From an uncultured Acidobacteriota bacterium (lineage in GTDB: Bacteria > Acidobacteriota > CAIWXX01), in NCBI GenBank assembly GCA_903916735.1, contig CAIWXX010000085.1, positions 7,883 to 71,882 of the forward strand: 64,000 nucleotides of DNA, given 5' to 3'. Of the stretch, positions 30,300-39,524 are shown piece by piece. A program made the position numbers and the translations under genes. Below the pieces are notes generated by a model. That model worked only from the letters and a program-made list of their open reading frames with translations. It was not told where the DNA came from and did not search any database. How positions within the stretch are numbered: the first letter of the stretch is position 1; each line of letters opens with the position of its first letter.

Positions 30300-30894
30300 T
30301 CGGGGAAATGGGTACCCTGCAAGCGTGTTATCAAGTTTCGCATGAAATGTCCTTCAGCCGCGGGGCGACGTGAATATTCACGGAGAAAACCACTCCCCCC
30401 AGACCATCAATATAGCAAATGCCGCATCATCCCTTCAAGGAGGACGTGACTTCCCTAATTCCGCGGCATTATTATTGCGCTGGAGTTGCTCTATTTCTCA
30501 CAACAGCAGAGGTGCGGAGGAGCGGACGTGCACGGGAGTTTTGTGAGCACGCTTGGCAGGATTGCGAGAGGACATCCCTCTTGGTTCACAAGCGTGGTCA
30601 AGGCAAGGACCGACCTGCGCCTGCTTCCAGAAACGAGTCGTTGGCAAAAGCTTGTCTGATCGATCAGAGTCATTGTACTGGACGTGCGTTTCGAGCAACA
30701 CTAATGCGGACATACTGAGTCAAATGGTTGAATTTCAATGATGGTGATGGTATCTTCAGCGCGCACTTTTTAGGGAGTACACTTCAAGAGGCCTGGTCGT
30801 TTGAGTGCTCCAGCATAAAGCCATAAGCGGTATGTTTGATGATGTGGCGGGTACAAATGTACATTCAGGGACTCACTCCAAACGGAGGACTTCA

Positions 30895-31587
30895 ATGAGC
30901 AAGTTCTATACGAAAGCGTTAAATCTTTCCATGTATCTATCGAAAGTATACAAAACGCAAGGGTATGAAGAATTCATGAAGGAATTTAGCCGATGTATCG
31001 ACCTTTCTCTTGAGGGCTTGGATACAAACCCTGAGGAAGTCGACCGAAGGCTGATCTCACTGGCCACAGGTATGTCGCTTTCTCTCTTCAGTGATAATCG
31101 GGAATCGATCATGCAGTTTATTGTGCATCTTCCCTTCCAACTGAAAGAGGATAAACCCATAGATATCAAACGAAAACGATTCATTGATGGGTTTGGAATG
31201 ATGGTGAAGACATTGGAGCAATCTTCCAGGAAGTTTTCAGAAAGAGTGATTATGTTACTAAAAAGTTATCCTCTTCAAAAACTGAATCAACTATCCGTCG
31301 ATATTTTGGCCAATCAGTTCCAATACAGCAAAAGTTATTTTTCTCGAAAATTCCACGAGGAACAAGGTCACACGATCCATGACGCTATCACTTATGAAAA
31401 GTTGAATCGGGCTTTTTCGCTGCTTTCCAACGCCAATCCGCGGATGAATGTCAAAGATGTCGCCCAGACCGTCGGATTTTCAGATCAGAAGTACTTTAGT
31501 TCTTTGTTTAAAGAAAACTATGGATTTTCTCCCTCCGACATCGCTCGTCTGGATGAGGCGATACATCGATATCCGAAGCAGGAATGA
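30895..31587 (+). CDS. AraC/XylS-family transcriptional regulator
   Basis: C-terminal double HTH (SKSYFSRKF...VKDVAQTVGFSDQKYFSSLFKENYGFSP); GGAGG before the ATG at 30895. Confidence 0.88.
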   Translation: MSKFYTKALNLSMYLSKVYKTQGYEEFMKEFSRCIDLSLEGLDTNPEEVDRRLISLATGMSLSLFSDNRESIMQFIVHLPFQLKEDKPIDIKRKRFIDGFGMMVKTLEQSSRKFSERVIMLLKSYPLQKLNQLSVDILANQFQYSKSYFSRKFHEEQGHTIHDAITYEKLNRAFSLLSNANPRMNVKDVAQTVGFSDQKYFSSLFKENYGFSPSDIARLDEAIHRYPKQE

Positions 31588-31601
31588 ATGGAAATCCATC
31601 G

Positions 31602-34600
31602 TCACAGAAGGGGGACGAGGGCTTCAAGTTTGAATTTTGTCTCATCATAATCCCTGAGTCTCATAGTGATATCTTTTTGAATCATCGCCATGGTGAAATC
31701 AGATAATTCCAATGGGACATCCGGATTTTGTTGGGCCGGGCGAATCGGCTCCTGGTGGACAATTTTAAAAATCGTCTGATAAACATCATCCTGATCGATC
31801 GGATACGGTGTTTCTCCGGTCAGCATGAGGTAAAGGATAATGCCCAGGGCATAAAAATCCACGGTCGGTTCAGGAGAATGTCGGTTCCAAAAATATTCAG
31901 GCGGAAGAAATAATGGGGTTCCGCTATCCAGATCGATTCGGGTCAGCGTTTGATTCTCGATGAAGCGGGCAAGGCCGAAATCCAGAATTCGGATATCACT
32001 CTTCACTTGTCCAACCATATCGTGAAAATCAAATGAATTGAGAGGATGAGATCCTCTCATAAAAAGAATATTCTCTGGTTTTAAATCGCGGTGGATCACG
32101 CCACAGGTATGAATCTCTTCAATAATGTCGAGCAGCACGGAGGTGATGGCAAGGGCAAATTTAGACGTGATGGCGCGCTCGTCAATCATCCTTTGCAGGG
32201 ATCTGCCGTCAACGTACTCCATGAAAAGATAGCTCCGGCCATGAATGGCTCCGCGTTCCCAAATCCGTGTGATATTCTGATGGAGAATGGTTTCGCAGAC
32301 GAGTCCTTCCTGAAGAAACTGGGCTTGCATCCTTGGTGAGATAATGCTCTCATGAATGATCTTAAGGGCGCCGGTTTTTCCAGTAACGTTGTCCTTTGTC
32401 AAAAAAACCTCGCCCGTCCCGCCTGAGCCGATCTTCTCAATGAGCTTGAACTTCCCGAATCGAGTCATCCTGTGGCGTTCAGCAAATTTAGTGAGAAGCT
32501 TCGATCCGACGGAGTAGCTGATCCCCCCTGCCGCCAATAATCCAATGATGACCAGGGTAAGAAACCATCCGGTCCGATAGAAAGGCGGGCGAATAGTGAT
32601 TCGAATTGATGTCCCTGTTTCATTCCATATTCCCTCTTCTCCAGCTCCCTTGACGCAGAAAACATATGTGCCCGGATCCAGGTTGGTATAGATAGCCTGC
32701 CGGCGAGATCCTGAGAAGATCCAATCCTTGTCAAAGCCGTCCATTCGATAGGCATATTGGCAGCGAGCGGGTTCGCTGAAATCCAAAACCGCAAATTCGA
32801 ATGTCAAAACATTTTGCCGATGGTCAAGAATGATGGTCTCTGTCTCGCTGACTCTTCTTGAAAGAATCGCCGTCGCTCCTTCTTCTATTGGAACCGGTTG
32901 GTTGAAGAGCTGGAATCCGGTCAGCCCGATCGAAGGGATTTCCTGATTCCTTCTTGCGCTTTCAGGTCGGAACCAATCCAAGCCGTTGTTGCCTCCAGCA
33001 AAGATCTCACCATGACGCGTTCTAATAAAAGTCTTATAGTTGAGAATATTGCTTTGTAATCCATCTAATACATTATATTTATGTAATACTTTGCCTTTGG
33101 GATTTGCATGAAAGATTCCATCGCTGGTTAATAACCAAAGATAGTTGTCGCTGTCTTCCAAAACACCGAGTATTTCGCATTTTGGTATCCCCATAAGAGG
33201 GGTGCAATAGATGAACCGGTTCGCTTCCGGAAAATATTGATACAGCCCATCAGCTGCTCCAATCCAAAAGGTGCCGGTTGAATTTTTTTTGACAATACAG
33301 TAGATGGCCTTTTGGCTGAGGTCGTCGGGGATAGTCGTTTTTTCATCATGAGTTGTAAGTTTCCCCGTAGCAGTTTCGAAAAAGAATAGGCCTTTGCTGG
33401 TGCCGAGCAATAGAGTGCCTTGATCTGCTTCCTGGATCGCAAGGATTGTAATGATGGGATGTTTTTCAACACTATCCTTGAATTGAAATGATGCAAGTAC
33501 TTTGCCATTTTTATCCATTTTGACAATACCCTGAGGATTGACCCCCACCCAGATGTCTCCTAACTGGTCTTCGTATAAAACATATGGTATTGAATCCTCG
33601 GTTTTGTGAGGGGAATAGTCGATGAAGTGGAACCGGTCTGAAGACTGTGGAAGCCGGCCTAATTTGCCTGAAAGGGTTCCGAACCACAGCGTTCCCCTGC
33701 TGTCCTCAAGGATGGAGATGACGGCGTTTCGAGAAAAATCCTGAGGGTCGGTGGAATCAGGGGAAAAATGGACGATCTTCCCAGTAGTTCGATCCCATCG
33801 GTTTAATCCCCCTCCCCATGTCCCAAGCCATAACGTTTCATTTCGGCCTTCACGAACGCATTGGATTTCATTGTTGCTCAGGCTTTCCGGATTTTCCGGG
33901 TGGTTTTGAAGATGTGAAAATGCCAACCTTCGTTGGTTGAGTTTGCATAGCCCGTTGCCCCACGTCCCGATCCATAGGTTTTCAGACCGATCTTCATAGA
34001 CTGAAAGGATTTGGTTGCTGCTGATGCTCCCCGAATCGGCGGGATTCGTGAAGAAATTCAATATTTGATCACTCTGGGGATCAATCCGGCTGACTCCGCC
34101 ATTGAATGCTCCAGCCCAGATGTGTCCGGAATGATCGGCAATTACTGCCTGGATATCTTTGAGGCTTGCGCCCTCAAGGCTCTTTGCATTTTGGGGATAA
34201 TGAAGAAAGCAACTCCGGTCGTTCTTATGAATCAGGCGATTGACCCCTCCACCCCTTGTCCCAATCCATAGGGTTCCATGAGAGTCCTCAACAATACATG
34301 AAACGATATCAAGGCTTAGGCTGTCCGGCTCAGTGGGCACATTATGGTAATGGCGGACTGCACCTGTCTTCGGCGTATATTGAAATAGCCCTTGTCCCCA
34401 TGTTCCAATCCAGATGTCGCCATTTTGACTTTGGTAAAGTGCACAAATGTGCATGGATTCGCCATGTTTCTGAAACGGATGCAAGACAGCTTGTTCGGAT
34501 CGGTGAGTGACCGGGTCATACCAGAATAAGCCTCGGTTGGCTATTGCAATCCATAGCAGCCCAGACTGGTCTTCTATGACAGCTCTTATAAGAGAGTGTT

Positions 34601-35063
34601 TATTGCTATCTTCCATTCCGGAAGGGAGGGATACTCCTTGCCATGACTCTTTCAGGACATTAAATCGCCTCAGACCCACTTGAGGCCGACCAACAATCCA
34701 CAGGTCTCCGGTCCGACTCAAGCATAGCGAATAAAGAGTGGCGTCTTCCGGATTGGTTGTTTTGAGTGGAGCAGGACGAAAGGTAGTGAAGGCGTAACCG
34801 TCATATTTGACAAGGCCATCCTCAGTGGCCAACCAGATAAATCCACGACGATCTTGGACGATTTCGGAGATAATATGCTGATTCAAGCCTTGCTTGGCTG
34901 CGATTCGTTCAAAATCAAGACCACCGAAGCAATCGTGGCGTACAAAAAAGGGCATCCCAATCAGCAAAAACTCCGAGAAAGCACTAAGGATAAGGAAAAA
35001 TGCGCCAATTTTTCGAGGGAACTGCATTTTCATACAACCGATAAACCAAAAATAGAATTCCAT
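31602..35063 (-). CDS. Membrane sensor: two-component-regulator beta-propeller + Y_Y_Y domain + TM helix + Hanks-type Ser/Thr kinase
   Basis: Repeated D..G.LW.GT..G propeller blades; QYAYRMDGFDKDW...YTNLDPGTY (Y_Y_Y); TM segment; IGSGGTGEV, ALK, HRDLKPEN, DFG and GTP kinase motifs. The start may be 35033 rather than 35063. Confidence 0.88.
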   Translation of the reverse strand: MEFYFWFIGCMKMQFPRKIGAFFLILSAFSEFLLIGMPFFVRHDCFGGLDFERIAAKQGLNQHIISEIVQDRRGFIWLATEDGLVKYDGYAFTTFRPAPLKTTNPEDATLYSLCLSRTGDLWIVGRPQVGLRRFNVLKESWQGVSLPSGMEDSNKHSLIRAVIEDQSGLLWIAIANRGLFWYDPVTHRSEQAVLHPFQKHGESMHICALYQSQNGDIWIGTWGQGLFQYTPKTGAVRHYHNVPTEPDSLSLDIVSCIVEDSHGTLWIGTRGGGVNRLIHKNDRSCFLHYPQNAKSLEGASLKDIQAVIADHSGHIWAGAFNGGVSRIDPQSDQILNFFTNPADSGSISSNQILSVYEDRSENLWIGTWGNGLCKLNQRRLAFSHLQNHPENPESLSNNEIQCVREGRNETLWLGTWGGGLNRWDRTTGKIVHFSPDSTDPQDFSRNAVISILEDSRGTLWFGTLSGKLGRLPQSSDRFHFIDYSPHKTEDSIPYVLYEDQLGDIWVGVNPQGIVKMDKNGKVLASFQFKDSVEKHPIITILAIQEADQGTLLLGTSKGLFFFETATGKLTTHDEKTTIPDDLSQKAIYCIVKKNSTGTFWIGAADGLYQYFPEANRFIYCTPLMGIPKCEILGVLEDSDNYLWLLTSDGIFHANPKGKVLHKYNVLDGLQSNILNYKTFIRTRHGEIFAGGNNGLDWFRPESARRNQEIPSIGLTGFQLFNQPVPIEEGATAILSRRVSETETIILDHRQNVLTFEFAVLDFSEPARCQYAYRMDGFDKDWIFSGSRRQAIYTNLDPGTYVFCVKGAGEEGIWNETGTSIRITIRPPFYRTGWFLTLVIIGLLAAGGISYSVGSKLLTKFAERHRMTRFGKFKLIEKIGSGGTGEVFLTKDNVTGKTGALKIIHESIISPRMQAQFLQEGLVCETILHQNITRIWERGAIHGRSYLFMEYVDGRSLQRMIDERAITSKFALAITSVLLDIIEEIHTCGVIHRDLKPENILFMRGSHPLNSFDFHDMVGQVKSDIRILDFGLARFIENQTLTRIDLDSGTPLFLPPEYFWNRHSPEPTVDFYALGIILYLMLTGETPYPIDQDDVYQTIFKIVHQEPIRPAQQNPDVPLELSDFTMAMIQKDITMRLRDYDETKFKLEALVPLL

Positions 35064-35650
35064 GTACTTTCTCAGTAAGTCAATATCTTCCTTTCACAAG
35101 GAAGAAGTCCTAAGCAGGGGGAAATTTATACGATAAGGCTGAAAAATTCAACATAGGAATGAAAAACATGTTCAATAGAAAATCTCCAATGTTATGAATC
35201 AGATAGACAGGAATAGAGCATCTCGGCACAAATTCAAGCAGTTTATGCATTTCTTTTCCGTCTAAGTTTAATATCCCAATCCATTGAAACCTATAGGGTT
35301 ACCGATCACAATTTCTTACCCAAAAGGACAGAAAGTCCTCATTATGTTGCTTATTACCGTCTTTACACGCTGGTGAGATCGTAGTTATCATATCGGCATG
35401 GCCATAAATATTTGCAAAAGACGAGGCCCGTGTGGCCGTTCTTCTCTTGCCATGAGGGAATCTGGTTGATTCGATCTCGTTTGTCCCTGTGCTGCCGCTC
35501 TCCAAATTTGAAAATAACGGAAGGGGAAAACTCCCTTGTCCAAAATAGACACTTATCTTCAAGCCCTCCCAAATTCATGGACGAAAGTGATCTTGAGTTC
35601 GGATGCTCTGAATTGGGACTCGTATCCAATTGTTCAAGGAGAATGACTGT

Positions 35651-37573
35651 ATGAAACAGATCCTGAGTGCCGTTTTTCTGATGGGGATGACCATCGGGAT
35701 TCTTAATGCTGAAGAAATCGTTCGAGACTATGACAACAATTCATACCATGTTGTCCGGATCGGATCTCAATCCTGGCTCAAGGAGAATCTCAAATCACTT
35801 CACTATTCTGATGGAATATCGATACCGGATGTCGTTTCCTTCAATAACGATGAAAGCCTGGCAACGGTCTACGGACGCCTGTATACATGGCCTGCTGCCA
35901 TGAAAGGATCCAATACTCCCATGACTCAGGGAGTCTGCCCATGTGGGTGGCATGTCCCGAGTGATCCGGAATGGACAACTATGGAGGAATATCTTGGCGG
36001 GGCAGCGGTTGCGGGTGGGAAACTAAAGGAGGCGGGCACGGCACATTGGAAGACCCCAAATACCGGTGCTGACAATTCGAGTGGGTTCAGCGCACTGGGT
36101 GCCGGTGAATGGGACACCACCGTATTTCATCAACTGACTGAACAGGCTGTATTTTGGACATCGACCGAAATCAGCGCCGAGGATGCAAGAGAACAATATC
36201 TCAGTTTTGATAATGCCGCCAGCCATATCTACAATTGGCATAAACCTTTGAAATATTCAATCCGCTGTATCAAGGACACCGCAGGCCCGCGTTGGGCGAC
36301 GACATACGGGGGAAAAACAGCCACCGACGTATCATCCATGCACGTGACATCGGATGGTGGTCAGATCATTGGCGGCATTCTTAGCGGATCCAAAGCTGGC
36401 AGCGAAGATTTTTTCATTATGCGCACGGACAGGGGTGCAAATGTCAAATGGACCTACAAATATGGCGGGAATAAAGGCGATATCCTGGCGAGCATCCAAC
36501 CGGCCTCAAATGGAGGCTACGTGGCAGTCGGGACATCTGATTCATTTGGATCCAAAGGGGACGACGATATTTGGATTGTGAGCCTGGATAGTCAGGGTGC
36601 CATCAAATGGCAGATGAGGTATGGCACAGGAAATGAGGATCAGGCGCATCATATCCAGCCAACAAAAGACGGCGGGTATGTGGTCACGGGATCCATGCAT
36701 TCAACTACCTCCAAGGATAGTGCATTCCTCTTGAAGCTGAATTCATCCGGAAGTGTTAAATGGCAAAATGCCTATCGAATTTCGGGATTTGAAACGGGCA
36801 TCCACGCGGAGCAAACATCTGACAGTGGGTATATCCTCCTCGGTCAGACTATTTCAACGGGAGGAGATTCCGATATTTGGGTTCTTAAAATGGATGCACG
36901 AGGCATAATCAAATGGCAGGTTGCGCTCGGAGGATCTGAAGATGATGTTGGAAAGGTGATCAGGCAGACGTCAGATGGAGGATACATCCTGATCGGGACC
37001 ACGTCCTCTTTCGGCGCAGGTGATTCAGATATTCTCGTGATGAAACTCACATCAACAGGTGCGATTAAATGGCAGAACACATTTGGATCCTCCGGGAAGG
37101 ATGAAGGAACCTGCATCCAACAAACAACGGACAGTGGATTCATAGCTTCAGGGTTGACACCGTCTTCGACAGGAGATGCGGATGTCGTCATTTTGAAGCT
37201 CGACAAATCGGGCAAGGTTCAATGGCAAAAAGCCTATGGTGAAACGGGCAACGAGACGTCTCCATTCATCGACAAGACCTGTGATAGCGGTTTCGCTGTT
37301 GCCTGCGGCATGGAAATGGCCAATTCAAAACCGACGACCATTTTGGCAATGAACATTTCAGAAAGTGGCGATTTCGATACAGCGTGTGAATCATTTTATC
37401 GCACTTCTCAACTCATGACTAAGAAGTCCACATGCCGGAAGGTTGTGACAAAAGCCGTCAAAAGCGATCCCAAATTTAAGATGAATACGGCAACCGGGAA
37501 AGGAACCAAGATGACGTTTTCATCCGATTCGATTTGTGCATCAATGCAATTGTGGCATGAGTGTGGCGAATAA
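35651..37573 (+). CDS. Secreted protein: FISUMP domain + beta-propeller-like repeats
   Basis: Signal peptide; IGSQSWLKENL, YGRLYTW, CPCGWHVPSDPEW, and YSIRCIKD (FISUMP); then about 50-aa QTxDGGYI repeats. AAGGAG RBS. Confidence 0.8.
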   Translation: MKQILSAVFLMGMTIGILNAEEIVRDYDNNSYHVVRIGSQSWLKENLKSLHYSDGISIPDVVSFNNDESLATVYGRLYTWPAAMKGSNTPMTQGVCPCGWHVPSDPEWTTMEEYLGGAAVAGGKLKEAGTAHWKTPNTGADNSSGFSALGAGEWDTTVFHQLTEQAVFWTSTEISAEDAREQYLSFDNAASHIYNWHKPLKYSIRCIKDTAGPRWATTYGGKTATDVSSMHVTSDGGQIIGGILSGSKAGSEDFFIMRTDRGANVKWTYKYGGNKGDILASIQPASNGGYVAVGTSDSFGSKGDDDIWIVSLDSQGAIKWQMRYGTGNEDQAHHIQPTKDGGYVVTGSMHSTTSKDSAFLLKLNSSGSVKWQNAYRISGFETGIHAEQTSDSGYILLGQTISTGGDSDIWVLKMDARGIIKWQVALGGSEDDVGKVIRQTSDGGYILIGTTSSFGAGDSDILVMKLTSTGAIKWQNTFGSSGKDEGTCIQQTTDSGFIASGLTPSSTGDADVVILKLDKSGKVQWQKAYGETGNETSPFIDKTCDSGFAVACGMEMANSKPTTILAMNISESGDFDTACESFYRTSQLMTKKSTCRKVVTKAVKSDPKFKMNTATGKGTKMTFSSDSICASMQLWHECGE

Positions 37574-38126
37574 AAAGGGAGATAACCCGCGACAAAATAT
37601 TGATGTTGTATTGTTAATACGAAGGATAAAAGAGGCGCTTCCGGGGTTGGAGTGGCCGGCCCCAAGATGTTGTGATTGGCGATGACATGGGGATCAGAGG
37701 GCAACGGCGCTGGCCATGGGGCAGAGATCAAGCCCATCCCAGTGAAAGTAGATGGCGAGGCGGTCGTGAGTACGATTGCGGAATCCATCCAGTCATTTCC
37801 TTCACCCCATCCACCGCCTGCCCCAATCCCCCTCCATCGGATCTCTCGAACACAACATGTTGGGGTATGCTACTCCATCGCCGGAATGACCGCTTTTACA
37901 TCCAAAATATGTTTTTCGCATATACCTTTGGGATGAATTCACTCTCCATGGAGGCCTGTTCATGGTCCACAAATTGCACAACACCAGTCAGAGCGCGACA
38001 AATCCGTTGGCGATTGATGTTGCTTCACTCTCCTATTTTTCCTCCAGCCCGATTCATTCACGGGCTGGTCATGACTCCGGCGTCGAGGCGCATCGCCATT
38101 TGACGAAGAAACACATCGAAAGCCGC

Positions 38127-39524
38127 ATGAGAGTGCTGGTCATGACGGCCGTTGTTTGGATGACGCCCTGGTGGAGCAGTGTCGACGCGAAGCCGGATAG
38201 TCTCCCCATCCCAGCGCCTCTCTCGACGCCCGCCAATAAAACTGTGGAAGTACGAAAGCTCTATAGCACTAGCCGTGACTCCTGCCTCAATAGCAGCGGC
38301 AGCCACAGTTGGGCTCAATTGACCCCCGACGGAACAACAGCCGGCATTGTTTATCGTGAAACGCAGGGAGGAGCCGGTGACAGCTCAATTTCTCAGCTCG
38401 TTCTGAAAACCATCACCCCCGATGGCCGGATTCAGAAAAAGCAGATCACCCATGGGACCTGTGTCGAAAACAGTGTCCTTCTTTACGATGCCTTGCTTCA
38501 TCCCCATATTTTCACGCTTCTGCAGAACGGTGTCGCTCAGGACTTGTTGCATTTCACCCTCAGTAATCGGACCAAGTGGCACAGCGAAAAAATTGCCCAT
38601 TTCGCCAACAGCAAAGGCGAATACGTCTATGAACTGGCCGCTGCTCTTGGACCCAAGAATTCTCTGCACCTGGCCGTGCTACAATTCGGCTCAACCCCCG
38701 ATCATTATCTGGTGGCCAACGAAAACAGCAATCTCTTCTACATGACCAATTTAAGCGGAGCATGGAAACAGGAGTTGGTGCAGCACTATGATTCCGTCTA
38801 CATTTTAATGAATATAGGATATTGGTATATGCGACCCCTGCGCCGTCAGGATCTGGTGATTGACAATTCCGGTCATGCTCATATCGCATACGGTGCCTTG
38901 GTGCGCGAGGGGTTTGATCCATATCCCACCGAGATGCGCTATGCTACCAACGCCAGCGGAAAGTGGGAAATCTCGACTGCTCTGCCGAAATCCGACACCT
39001 CCTGCGATGCCGGCTATAATCCTTCCATCGCCATCGACAGCCATGGACGCATCGCCATGGCATGCACCTATGTCGAGCGTGTGCCGGCCAAATCAGCTCA
39101 ATATTCTCAATTAATATATGCGCAATTGAATAGAGGGAAGTGGACTAGAAATGTACTTGTCACTGTGGCCGATAATTATTTCGGTTACGATGAAGGCCAG
39201 TTCACCGGCGCCATTCCTCATTTATGTTTCGATAAACGGGATCGGCCGCATATCGTTTTTTCCGATATTGCCTCTTCACATGTGAGGGAAGGTAGTTTTC
39301 TTAATGTGGGGCAGATCCGCTACATCCACTACAACGGGGTCGGTTGGGAGCTTTCCACTCTCTATCACCAACCCAGCCCCTATGATTACAATACTTTCAG
39401 CGAAATCCACAGCATTTGCCTCATGTTGTCGCCTACTAGTGACGAGTTTCAGATCATCGCCGAGGAGTATATCGGAACTGGTAGCAATCGCACATTCAAT
39501 CTACTACATCTCAATTCCAAATAG
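38127..39524 (+). CDS. Secreted hypothetical protein (probable beta-propeller)
   Basis: Signal-like N-terminus at the ATG at 38127; repeated ID..G.AHIAY / W......V blades. The start is uncertain. Confidence 0.6.
   Translation: MRVLVMTAVVWMTPWWSSVDAKPDSLPIPAPLSTPANKTVEVRKLYSTSRDSCLNSSGSHSWAQLTPDGTTAGIVYRETQGGAGDSSISQLVLKTITPDGRIQKKQITHGTCVENSVLLYDALLHPHIFTLLQNGVAQDLLHFTLSNRTKWHSEKIAHFANSKGEYVYELAAALGPKNSLHLAVLQFGSTPDHYLVANENSNLFYMTNLSGAWKQELVQHYDSVYILMNIGYWYMRPLRRQDLVIDNSGHAHIAYGALVREGFDPYPTEMRYATNASGKWEISTALPKSDTSCDAGYNPSIAIDSHGRIAMACTYVERVPAKSAQYSQLIYAQLNRGKWTRNVLVTVADNYFGYDEGQFTGAIPHLCFDKRDRPHIVFSDIASSHVREGSFLNVGQIRYIHYNGVGWELSTLYHQPSPYDYNTFSEIHSICLMLSPTSDEFQIIAEEYIGTGSNRTFNLLHLNSK

Follow-up and report, generated by a model that had tools for sequence, protein, structure and literature searches.

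In a stretch of 64,000 nucleotides from an uncultured Acidobacteriota bacterium (contig CAIWXX010000085.1; the whole stretch is referred to hereafter as the window), the gene of a membrane-anchored Ser/Thr kinase with a large sensor region and the gene of a small AraC-type transcription regulator are found end to end. The regulator (230 aa) is encoded on the forward strand at 30895..31587, its best start being the ATG at 30895, with GGAGG located 8 nt upstream, and its stop lying at 31587. The kinase is encoded on the reverse strand by an open reading frame (ORF) at 31602-35063, which holds 1153 open codons, yields a product of 1153 aa and terminates with the stop codon 31602-31604. The two convergent stop codons are separated by a spacer of 14 bp (31588..31601) in which no terminator-like hairpin was found, and a promoter and terminator scan of the locus gave background level only. 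A previous sequence-only reading of this DNA described the kinase as the propeller/Y_Y_Y sensor of hybrid two-component systems (HTCS) fused to an intact Hanks kinase (ALK, HRDLKPEN, DFG), and the regulator as a convergent AraC protein with a non-receiver N-terminal domain 14 bp away; the ORF, the Pfam domains and the conserved motifs agree with the first description, and the stop positions and the restriction of Pfam matches to the helix-turn-helix (HTH) agree with the second. This article describes the organization of both proteins, their association across Acidobacteriota and the possibility that they work as a signaling pair.

The 1153-aa protein consists of a signal-anchor, a two-propeller Reg_prop sensor, a Y_Y_Y domain, a transmembrane helix and a Hanks kinase, in this order, all of them encoded on the reverse strand. 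The N-terminal signal-anchor, or first transmembrane segment, covers residues 18-42 (34938..35012), and the start codon corresponds to M1, M11 or M13. Residues 43-760 (32784..34937) make up the extracytoplasmic double beta-propeller, which was assigned by Pfam (many Reg_prop repeats, E 5e-40), by hydropathy and by identity to the other sensors of the genome, and residues 761-824 (32592..32783) make up the Y_Y_Y domain (Pfam, E 5e-18). The second transmembrane helix (residues 830-854; 32502..32576) is followed by a short juxtamembrane stretch, SKLLTKFAERHRMTRFGKF, and by the cytoplasmic Hanks-type Ser/Thr kinase domain (residues 866-1153; 31605..32468), which matches Pkinase over residues 873-1136 with E 6e-44 and 150.9 bits, the gathering score being 31.7. 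Hydropathy reveals exactly two membrane segments, the ones at residues 18-42 and 830-854, and this places the roughly 790 residues of the double propeller and Y_Y_Y (residues 43-829) outside the cytoplasmic membrane and the kinase inside, as predicted from the primary structure. HisKA and HATPase_c gave no Pfam match in the protein, the cytoplasmic part of which is filled by Pkinase, and the polypeptide ends after the kinase, a receiver and an AraC HTH not being included in the same chain. NCBIfam contains no equivalog model for either the kinase fusion or the AraC protein.

Every catalytic motif of Hanks kinases is present, including GSGGTGEV, K901 in ALK, E919, HRDLKPEN (991-998), DFG (1028-1030), PPE (1054-1056), D1069 and R1135, and these motifs vary little or not at all among 15 to 27 homologs. 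Conservation extends to two threonines of the activation loop, T1041 and T1049. The kinase domain is thus predicted to be catalytically intact. A search restricted to the Y_Y_Y-transmembrane-kinase part retrieved about 30 clusters of proteins of 1050-1150 aa that carry the full domain set in unchanged order (coverage 93-100%, identity 31-52%), which are mostly metagenomic, the few named ones being annotated only as 'protein kinase [Acidobacteria bacterium]'. As this architecture is common to a whole family, an HTCS broken by a frameshift was rejected as its origin. No description of the fusion was found in the literature searched.

In a maximum likelihood tree of kinase domains (branch support by SH-aLRT, an approximate likelihood ratio test) the Reg_prop-fused kinases group together against generic kinases (SH-aLRT 99) and split into clade A, which carries an insert of 10-20 residues between HRDLKPxN and DFG (SH-aLRT 99, 31 rows), and clade B, which does not. 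The kinase of the window has an insert of about 10 aa between HRDLKPEN and DFG. The clade-A insert corresponds to kinase residues ~1000-1022 (window ~31998-32066, reverse strand), is absent from clade B and from generic kinases, and could serve as a substrate-docking element. Clade A holds all 16 AraC-linked propeller kinases together with a kinase of different sensor architecture (locus L110), in which TPR repeats, a transmembrane helix and the kinase follow one another and which carries the clade-A juxtamembrane motif and insert. Among clade B members with known context, linkage to AraC was not found, and genomes with only B-type kinases, including one from the same family as the genome of the window (G029), have no AraC of this kind.

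Besides the protein described here, which is the only fusion of both kinds, the genome from which the window derives encodes 13 Reg_prop/Y_Y_Y sensors and about 35 Hanks kinases. Its Reg_prop sensor is 30-40% identical to the 13 others, and its Y_Y_Y domain is 44-58% identical to those of the histidine-kinase and HTCS-type sensors P0052, P0055, P0067 and P0117. The other propeller sensors of the genome end in HisKA_3/HATPase kinases, a PAS-HK-REC hybrid, a SpoIIE/PP2C phosphatase, GGDEF or a short Cys-rich tail, and none of them ends in a receiver plus AraC. Because it is fused to so many different outputs, the Reg_prop/Y_Y_Y sensor is a promiscuous input module and not a dismantled Bacteroides HTCS. 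The Cys-rich tail, of about 60 aa, deserves a separate mention. It terminates four of these sensors, encoded on contigs of the genome outside the window (C183:25747-28389(-), C3:55890-58544(-), C120:30742-33354(+) and C160:26256-28949(-)), after a transmembrane helix and a short coiled coil, has the Cys/His-rich pattern LPICAWCxKxRxDxGYWxxxExYxxxHxxAxFSHGxCPxC without a Pfam match, and may be a minimal zinc-binding output domain.

The AraC-type regulator combines an N-terminal five-helix domain (residues 1-~125) with the C-terminal double HTH (HTH_18/HTH_AraC) that is the hallmark of the AraC/XylS family (residues ~126-225). Pfam and NCBIfam matched only the C-terminal ~100 residues of the 230-aa protein (HTH_18 at residues 168-247 of the long form of the ORF, 61.7 bits against a cut-off of 33.6), leaving the N-terminal ~125 residues unmatched and detecting no receiver domain; a Pfam scan of 30 N-domains of the subfamily at E <= 1 returned no consistent family. 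An AlphaFold2 model built with a 48-sequence alignment reached a mean predicted local distance difference test (pLDDT) score of 92.8 and shows helices at residues 2-22, 24-38, 46-64, 69-82 and 89-111, followed by a canonical AraC double HTH; modeled alone, the N-domain had a pLDDT of 86. In Foldseek comparisons with the PDB, the matches of the full-length model were confined to AraC DNA-binding domains, and this part superposes on AraT (6swi), YesN (3lsg), MarA and SoxS, the AraT/YesN outputs being the best. The N-domain alone had no significant neighbor in the PDB (best E-value 0.85). Four-helix histidine phosphotransfer (HPt) proteins head its list with template-modeling scores of 0.27-0.41, which are not significant, and a relationship with HPt was rejected. 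A relationship with receivers was discarded as well, the fold search giving no significant match, and so was a cupin-type sugar-binding AraC, the N-domain being all-helical. More generally, a known N-terminal companion domain (cupin/AraC_binding, receiver, GATase-like and others) was not found in the subfamily by Pfam on the 30 N-domains or by Foldseek on the PDB. With no fold or Pfam match, the N-domain as modeled is neither a receiver, nor a cupin, nor a described ligand-binding module.

Only three positions of the N-domain, G23, K92 and T6, are well conserved in the 48-sequence alignment. Position 6 is Thr in 33/48 sequences and Ser in 7/48 (T/S 83%); among the 30 closer sequences its conservation reaches 90% or more. 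Because it is the sole conserved hydroxyl residue outside the DNA-binding domain, T6 is the obvious candidate phospho-acceptor of the regulator. The subfamily is small, as a profile search of 1.84 billion representative proteins recovered about 47 clusters at 50% identity (E <= 1e-30), all of 216-253 aa; so small a family fits a specialized partner. Word-index searches with the single sequence and with the 48-sequence profile found almost nothing beyond the protein itself, and a metagenome contig scan with a 5-sequence AraC alignment was swamped, giving two matches to the DNA-binding domain alone.

The two genes are found together well beyond the window. Each of the three closest homologs of the kinase (52, 52 and 40% identity) has a convergent AraC of 221-231 aa at its 3' end, and all the other neighbors differ. 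Of three more distant homologs (35-36% identity), one is immediately preceded by the AraC in an overlapping operon, another has it 3.7 kb upstream, divergent from the TonB-dependent receptor gene that precedes the kinase, and the third has none within 6 kb. The linked AraCs align from end to end, the N-terminal 125 residues included, and on this basis are assigned to one subfamily of orthologs. The phylum was sampled through 401 genomes, and 20 regions mapped from those carrying the AraC were pooled with metagenome loci. The full-length AraC subfamily occurs in 11/401 genomes, all 11 of which carry A-type fusion kinases, and in 0 genomes devoid of them. An AraC lies within 4 kb of 13/22 fusion kinases in the mapped genome regions and metagenome loci, in convergent arrangement (5), upstream and co-directional (4), downstream and co-directional (2) or divergent with one gene between (3, one of which belongs to a locus that also holds a convergent pair). 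Considering the clade A kinases with readable context, 17/24 have a subfamily AraC within 6 kb, in four gene arrangements. Chance adjacency would give about 0.1 pairs over all genomes examined (<=7 AraC genes per ~5-Mb genome).

As a control, 80 generic Ser/Thr-kinase loci from many phyla were collected by a contig scan with a full-length kinase alignment and the generic motifs HRDLKP[ED]N and YALGVILYEM, which returned no member of the family, and the subfamily AraC was present at 0/80 of them. The association was also examined in the reverse direction, starting from five AraC members on metagenome contigs. One of these contigs was too short to judge (1.6 kb), and on the long ones 4/4 AraC genes adjoin a Hanks kinase: the first converges on a Reg_prop/Y_Y_Y kinase gene, the second is transcribed divergently from a TonB-dependent receptor and has a Reg_prop kinase at a distance of 5.7 kb, the third follows, after 34 bp, the gene of a protein with extracytoplasmic TPR, a transmembrane helix and a C-terminal kinase, and the fourth is divergent from a kinase-transmembrane-TPR protein. 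The co-occurrence of this kinase architecture with this AraC subfamily, for which the sequence-only reading had asked, is thereby borne out (17/24 in clade A, 4/4 in reverse, 0/80 in controls).

Both proteins also appear to have diversified together. Pairwise distances among kinases and among AraCs are congruent (Mantel r = 0.78, permutation p = 2e-4, 14 pairs), and paralogous pairs within one genome as well as orthologous pairs between genomes are reciprocal nearest neighbors for both proteins. The numbers of A-type kinases and AraCs per genome are 1/1, 1/1, 1/1, 2/2, 2/2, 2/2, 7/7 (G050), 3/2, 3-4/3 and 2/1, and given these near-equal counts unlinked kinases and orphan AraCs could still pair in trans. 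As the AraC subfamily also pairs with TPR-sensor Hanks kinases, it is the A-type kinase domain and this AraC, with its N-domain, that are inherited, duplicated and moved as a unit, and the sensor (propeller or TPR) is exchangeable. In the window, the AraC gene, the kinase gene and the intergenic region upstream of the latter form a low-GC patch (30800-35650; 41-47% GC versus 53-55% in the flanks), and the closest relatives of both proteins belong to another family of the phylum, which suggests that the pair was acquired horizontally as one unit.

Taken together, these data point, with somewhat more confidence than doubt, to a dedicated two-gene signaling pair in which the receptor kinase would phosphorylate its cognate AraC on the N-domain and so switch nearby transcription. 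The periplasmic double propeller and Y_Y_Y would probably bind an oligosaccharide or another polymer fragment, as HTCS sensors do. The single transmembrane helix, as seen in the sequence, couples this sensor to the cytoplasmic Hanks kinase with its intact catalytic motifs, and the signal would activate the kinase, perhaps by the ligand-induced dimerization that the sequence-only reading proposed. The activated kinase would recognize the 230-aa AraC and phosphorylate its five-helix domain, T6 being the best candidate site, and this modification may alter the oligomeric state or the DNA binding of the regulator, which would then switch nearby genes for secreted or outer-membrane proteins, here a FISUMP/propeller protein. 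In this scheme we infer the ligand, the phosphotransfer, the phospho-site and the target genes.

Several observations weigh against such a scheme. T6 is modeled within helix 1 and not in a flexible or disordered tail, and it is missing in about 17% of the subfamily members. About a third of the A-type kinases have no nearby AraC, and about 40% of the AraCs encoded in genomes are orphans. The locus encodes no cognate PP2C phosphatase, and when eight intergenic regions from the closest loci were compared, neither a k-mer that could be a common operator nor a direct repeat rose above compositional noise. Finally, linkage, co-duplication and congruent trees would also be expected if the AraC only regulated transcription of the kinase gene.

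This last point leads to the alternative that survives best, which is considered unlikely but retains appreciable weight. The AraC would be a local regulator of the kinase gene or of neighboring secreted-protein genes that responds to an intracellular signal of its own through the N-domain, the substrates of the kinase would be unlinked, and both genes would be co-inherited as a regulator and a regulated gene. AraC-type regulators are commonly encoded beside the genes under their control, and orphan AraCs are found beside secreted proteases and Sortilin/BNR proteins with no kinase. However, the constant neighbor over three sensor architectures and four gene orders is the Hanks kinase domain and no particular target gene, a regulator seldom stands in a convergent or overlapping-operon layout to its target promoter, a recognizable ligand-binding fold is absent from the N-domain, and the AraC is missing from every genome without an A-type kinase.

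According to another possibility, which is quite improbable in our estimation, the kinase controls the AraC without phosphoryl transfer, by sequestration or docking at the membrane in the manner of a partner-switch or anti-activator, with autophosphorylation gating the binding. The same co-occurrence and co-evolution would be observed, the AraC has no invariant phospho-acceptor, and the insert between the catalytic loop and DFG that is specific to clade A could provide a docking surface. Against this, all catalytic residues are strongly conserved, T6 is among the three best-conserved positions of the N-domain, and the known bacterial pairs of a Ser/Thr kinase and a transcription factor work by phosphorylation (PMC4601284). 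That the adjacency is fortuitous or the kinase a decayed pseudokinase, so that no signaling pair exists, is hardly credible and was rejected, for even though the window itself shows one convergent gene pair only, the linkage is found again, with the genes reordered, at more than 17 independent loci versus 0/80 controls and a chance expectation of ~0.1 pairs, the two proteins co-evolve, and the Hanks motifs are all intact and conserved.

The proposal of a phosphorylating kinase-AraC pair can be compared with several known systems. The sensor resembles those of the Reg_prop/Y_Y_Y HTCS of Bacteroides (listed in PMC3243724; e.g., BT4663-type) in that a double Reg_prop propeller and Y_Y_Y lie between two membrane segments, and its Y_Y_Y domain shares 44% identity with the one in P0117, a true HTCS. 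Further similarities are the final output, an AraC-type DNA-binding domain, and the presence of secreted and outer-membrane proteins, including TonB-dependent receptors, in the loci. In contrast to these HTCS, the proteins described here belong to Acidobacteriota and not to Bacteroidota, HisKA/HATPase and receiver are lacking, the transmitter is a Hanks Ser/Thr kinase, and the AraC stands as a protein of its own, carries a novel helical N-domain and also partners TPR-sensor kinases. The earlier picture of HTCS parts that had been rewired is therefore retained as far as the sensor module is concerned, which is the same, and was revised in the rest, as what stays constant beside the AraC is the kinase domain, TPR sensors also occur and the sensor is promiscuous within the genome. 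Concerning the regulator, the structurally closest DNA-binding domains are those of the YesN/AraT response regulators (6swi AraT, 3lsg YesN), which join REC and AraC, and one subfamily member is named 'response regulator YesN' in its source. In the protein modeled here a five-helix bundle without the Asp pocket takes the place of the receiver, and on that model it cannot be the substrate of a His-Asp phosphorelay.

Ser/Thr kinases that target transcription factors are already known, and in this respect the pair is not a new kind of system. The genes of PknH and EmbR are neighbors, and AfsK-AfsR joins a Ser/Thr kinase to a dedicated transcription-factor substrate, the kinases of these two couples being of receptor or soluble kind. 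The PknH-EmbR couple comprises a Hanks kinase and a dedicated regulator substrate (PMC4601284). The substrates in both couples are SARP regulators, EmbR being recognized via FHA, whereas the regulator described here is of AraC type and has no FHA. The nearest experimental precedent comes from M. tuberculosis, in which PknK phosphorylates VirS, a regulator of the AraC family, and thereby increases its affinity for the promoter 2.5-fold (Kumar et al. 2009, reviewed in PMC4601284). Both cases include a Hanks Ser/Thr kinase and an AraC-family factor, phosphorylation of the AraC being proposed in the present one. They differ in that PknK, a soluble protein with a STAND-type C-terminal region, lacks the extracytoplasmic sensor of a membrane receptor, and in that the N-terminal region of VirS is of another kind, homologs of the present N-domain not being found in Pfam or the PDB. 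To our knowledge, a family of one-to-one co-duplicating pairs has not been described for PknK-VirS, and a conserved genomic association of kinase and regulator is present here. The usual order in PknB and PknH is an N-terminal kinase, a transmembrane segment and a C-terminal sensor. It is reversed in the protein of the window, in which the kinase is C-terminal to the sensor, a topology shared with HTCS and histidine-kinase sensors.

A broader proposal, made tentatively and with slightly less than even confidence, is that the locus represents the first recognized member of a modular 'Ser/Thr two-component system', composed of one-to-one pairs with swappable propeller or TPR sensors and a helical 'receiver-like' domain phosphorylated by a Hanks kinase. 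In the literature searched no description was found of a Hanks kinase of receptor type whose HTCS-like sensor is placed as in histidine kinases, of a private AraC partner with this new helical N-domain, or of a pair family that duplicates and swaps sensors as two-component systems do. Bacterial Hanks kinases are generally portrayed as few per genome and pleiotropic, unlike histidine kinases and response regulators, which are wired one to one (PMC4601284). Modular Ser/Thr pairs, if real, would contradict this common view, and they would duplicate and diversify within genomes (seven in one acidobacterium) as His-Asp two-component systems do. If one kinase clade retains a transcription factor as its private partner, Ser/Thr signaling would be seen to adopt a two-component-like logic; the existence of this kind of clade is supported by the co-duplication of the pairs (up to seven per genome) and by the swapping of the sensor while the pair is kept. 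The N-domain, helical and of ~125 residues, would constitute a new candidate Ser/Thr phospho-acceptor module analogous to receivers. The pair could be cloned for study as a 300-aa kinase domain and a 230-aa regulator, and would offer a handle on the sensing of extracellular polymers by uncultured Acidobacteriota.

With regard to the neighboring genes, the kinase gene is separated by a divergent intergenic region of 587 bp with 41% GC (35064..35650), a candidate control region, from a forward-strand gene (35651..37573) for a secreted protein that combines a FISUMP (Fib_succ_major) domain with a beta-propeller of SBBP/delta-60-like type. This gene is a candidate target of the AraC. Secreted and outer-membrane proteins are recurrent neighbors of the pairs and of the orphan AraCs, among them SBBP and BNR/Sortilin propellers, dockerin-bearing esterases and peptidases, and TonB-dependent receptors, and they are plausible targets. 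Propeller proteins of the SBBP or BNR/Sortilin type were seen beside other pairs or orphan AraCs at loci L100, L001 and L095. The FISUMP gene is followed by one for a 520-aa protein without a Pfam family (37962-39524). On the other side, the 595 bp upstream of the AraC gene are otherwise devoid of annotation; a 99-codon ORF at 30419-30718, which matches neither Pfam nor NCBIfam, is probably not a gene. Beside the closest homologous pair (L001:12583-16724) there is a SiaABCD-like module, made up of a HAMP-SpoIIE phosphatase, DUF6272, SiaC and a GGDEF protein, which is probably an independent neighbor. Propeller sensors also occur in tandem, as at L103:2979-13504, where three Reg_prop genes stand in a row, and at L109:4102-10388, where the gene immediately upstream of a Reg_prop-Y_Y_Y-kinase gene encodes Reg_prop-Y_Y_Y-GGDEF; such tandems suggest that one locus may convert related signals into both c-di-GMP and Ser/Thr outputs.

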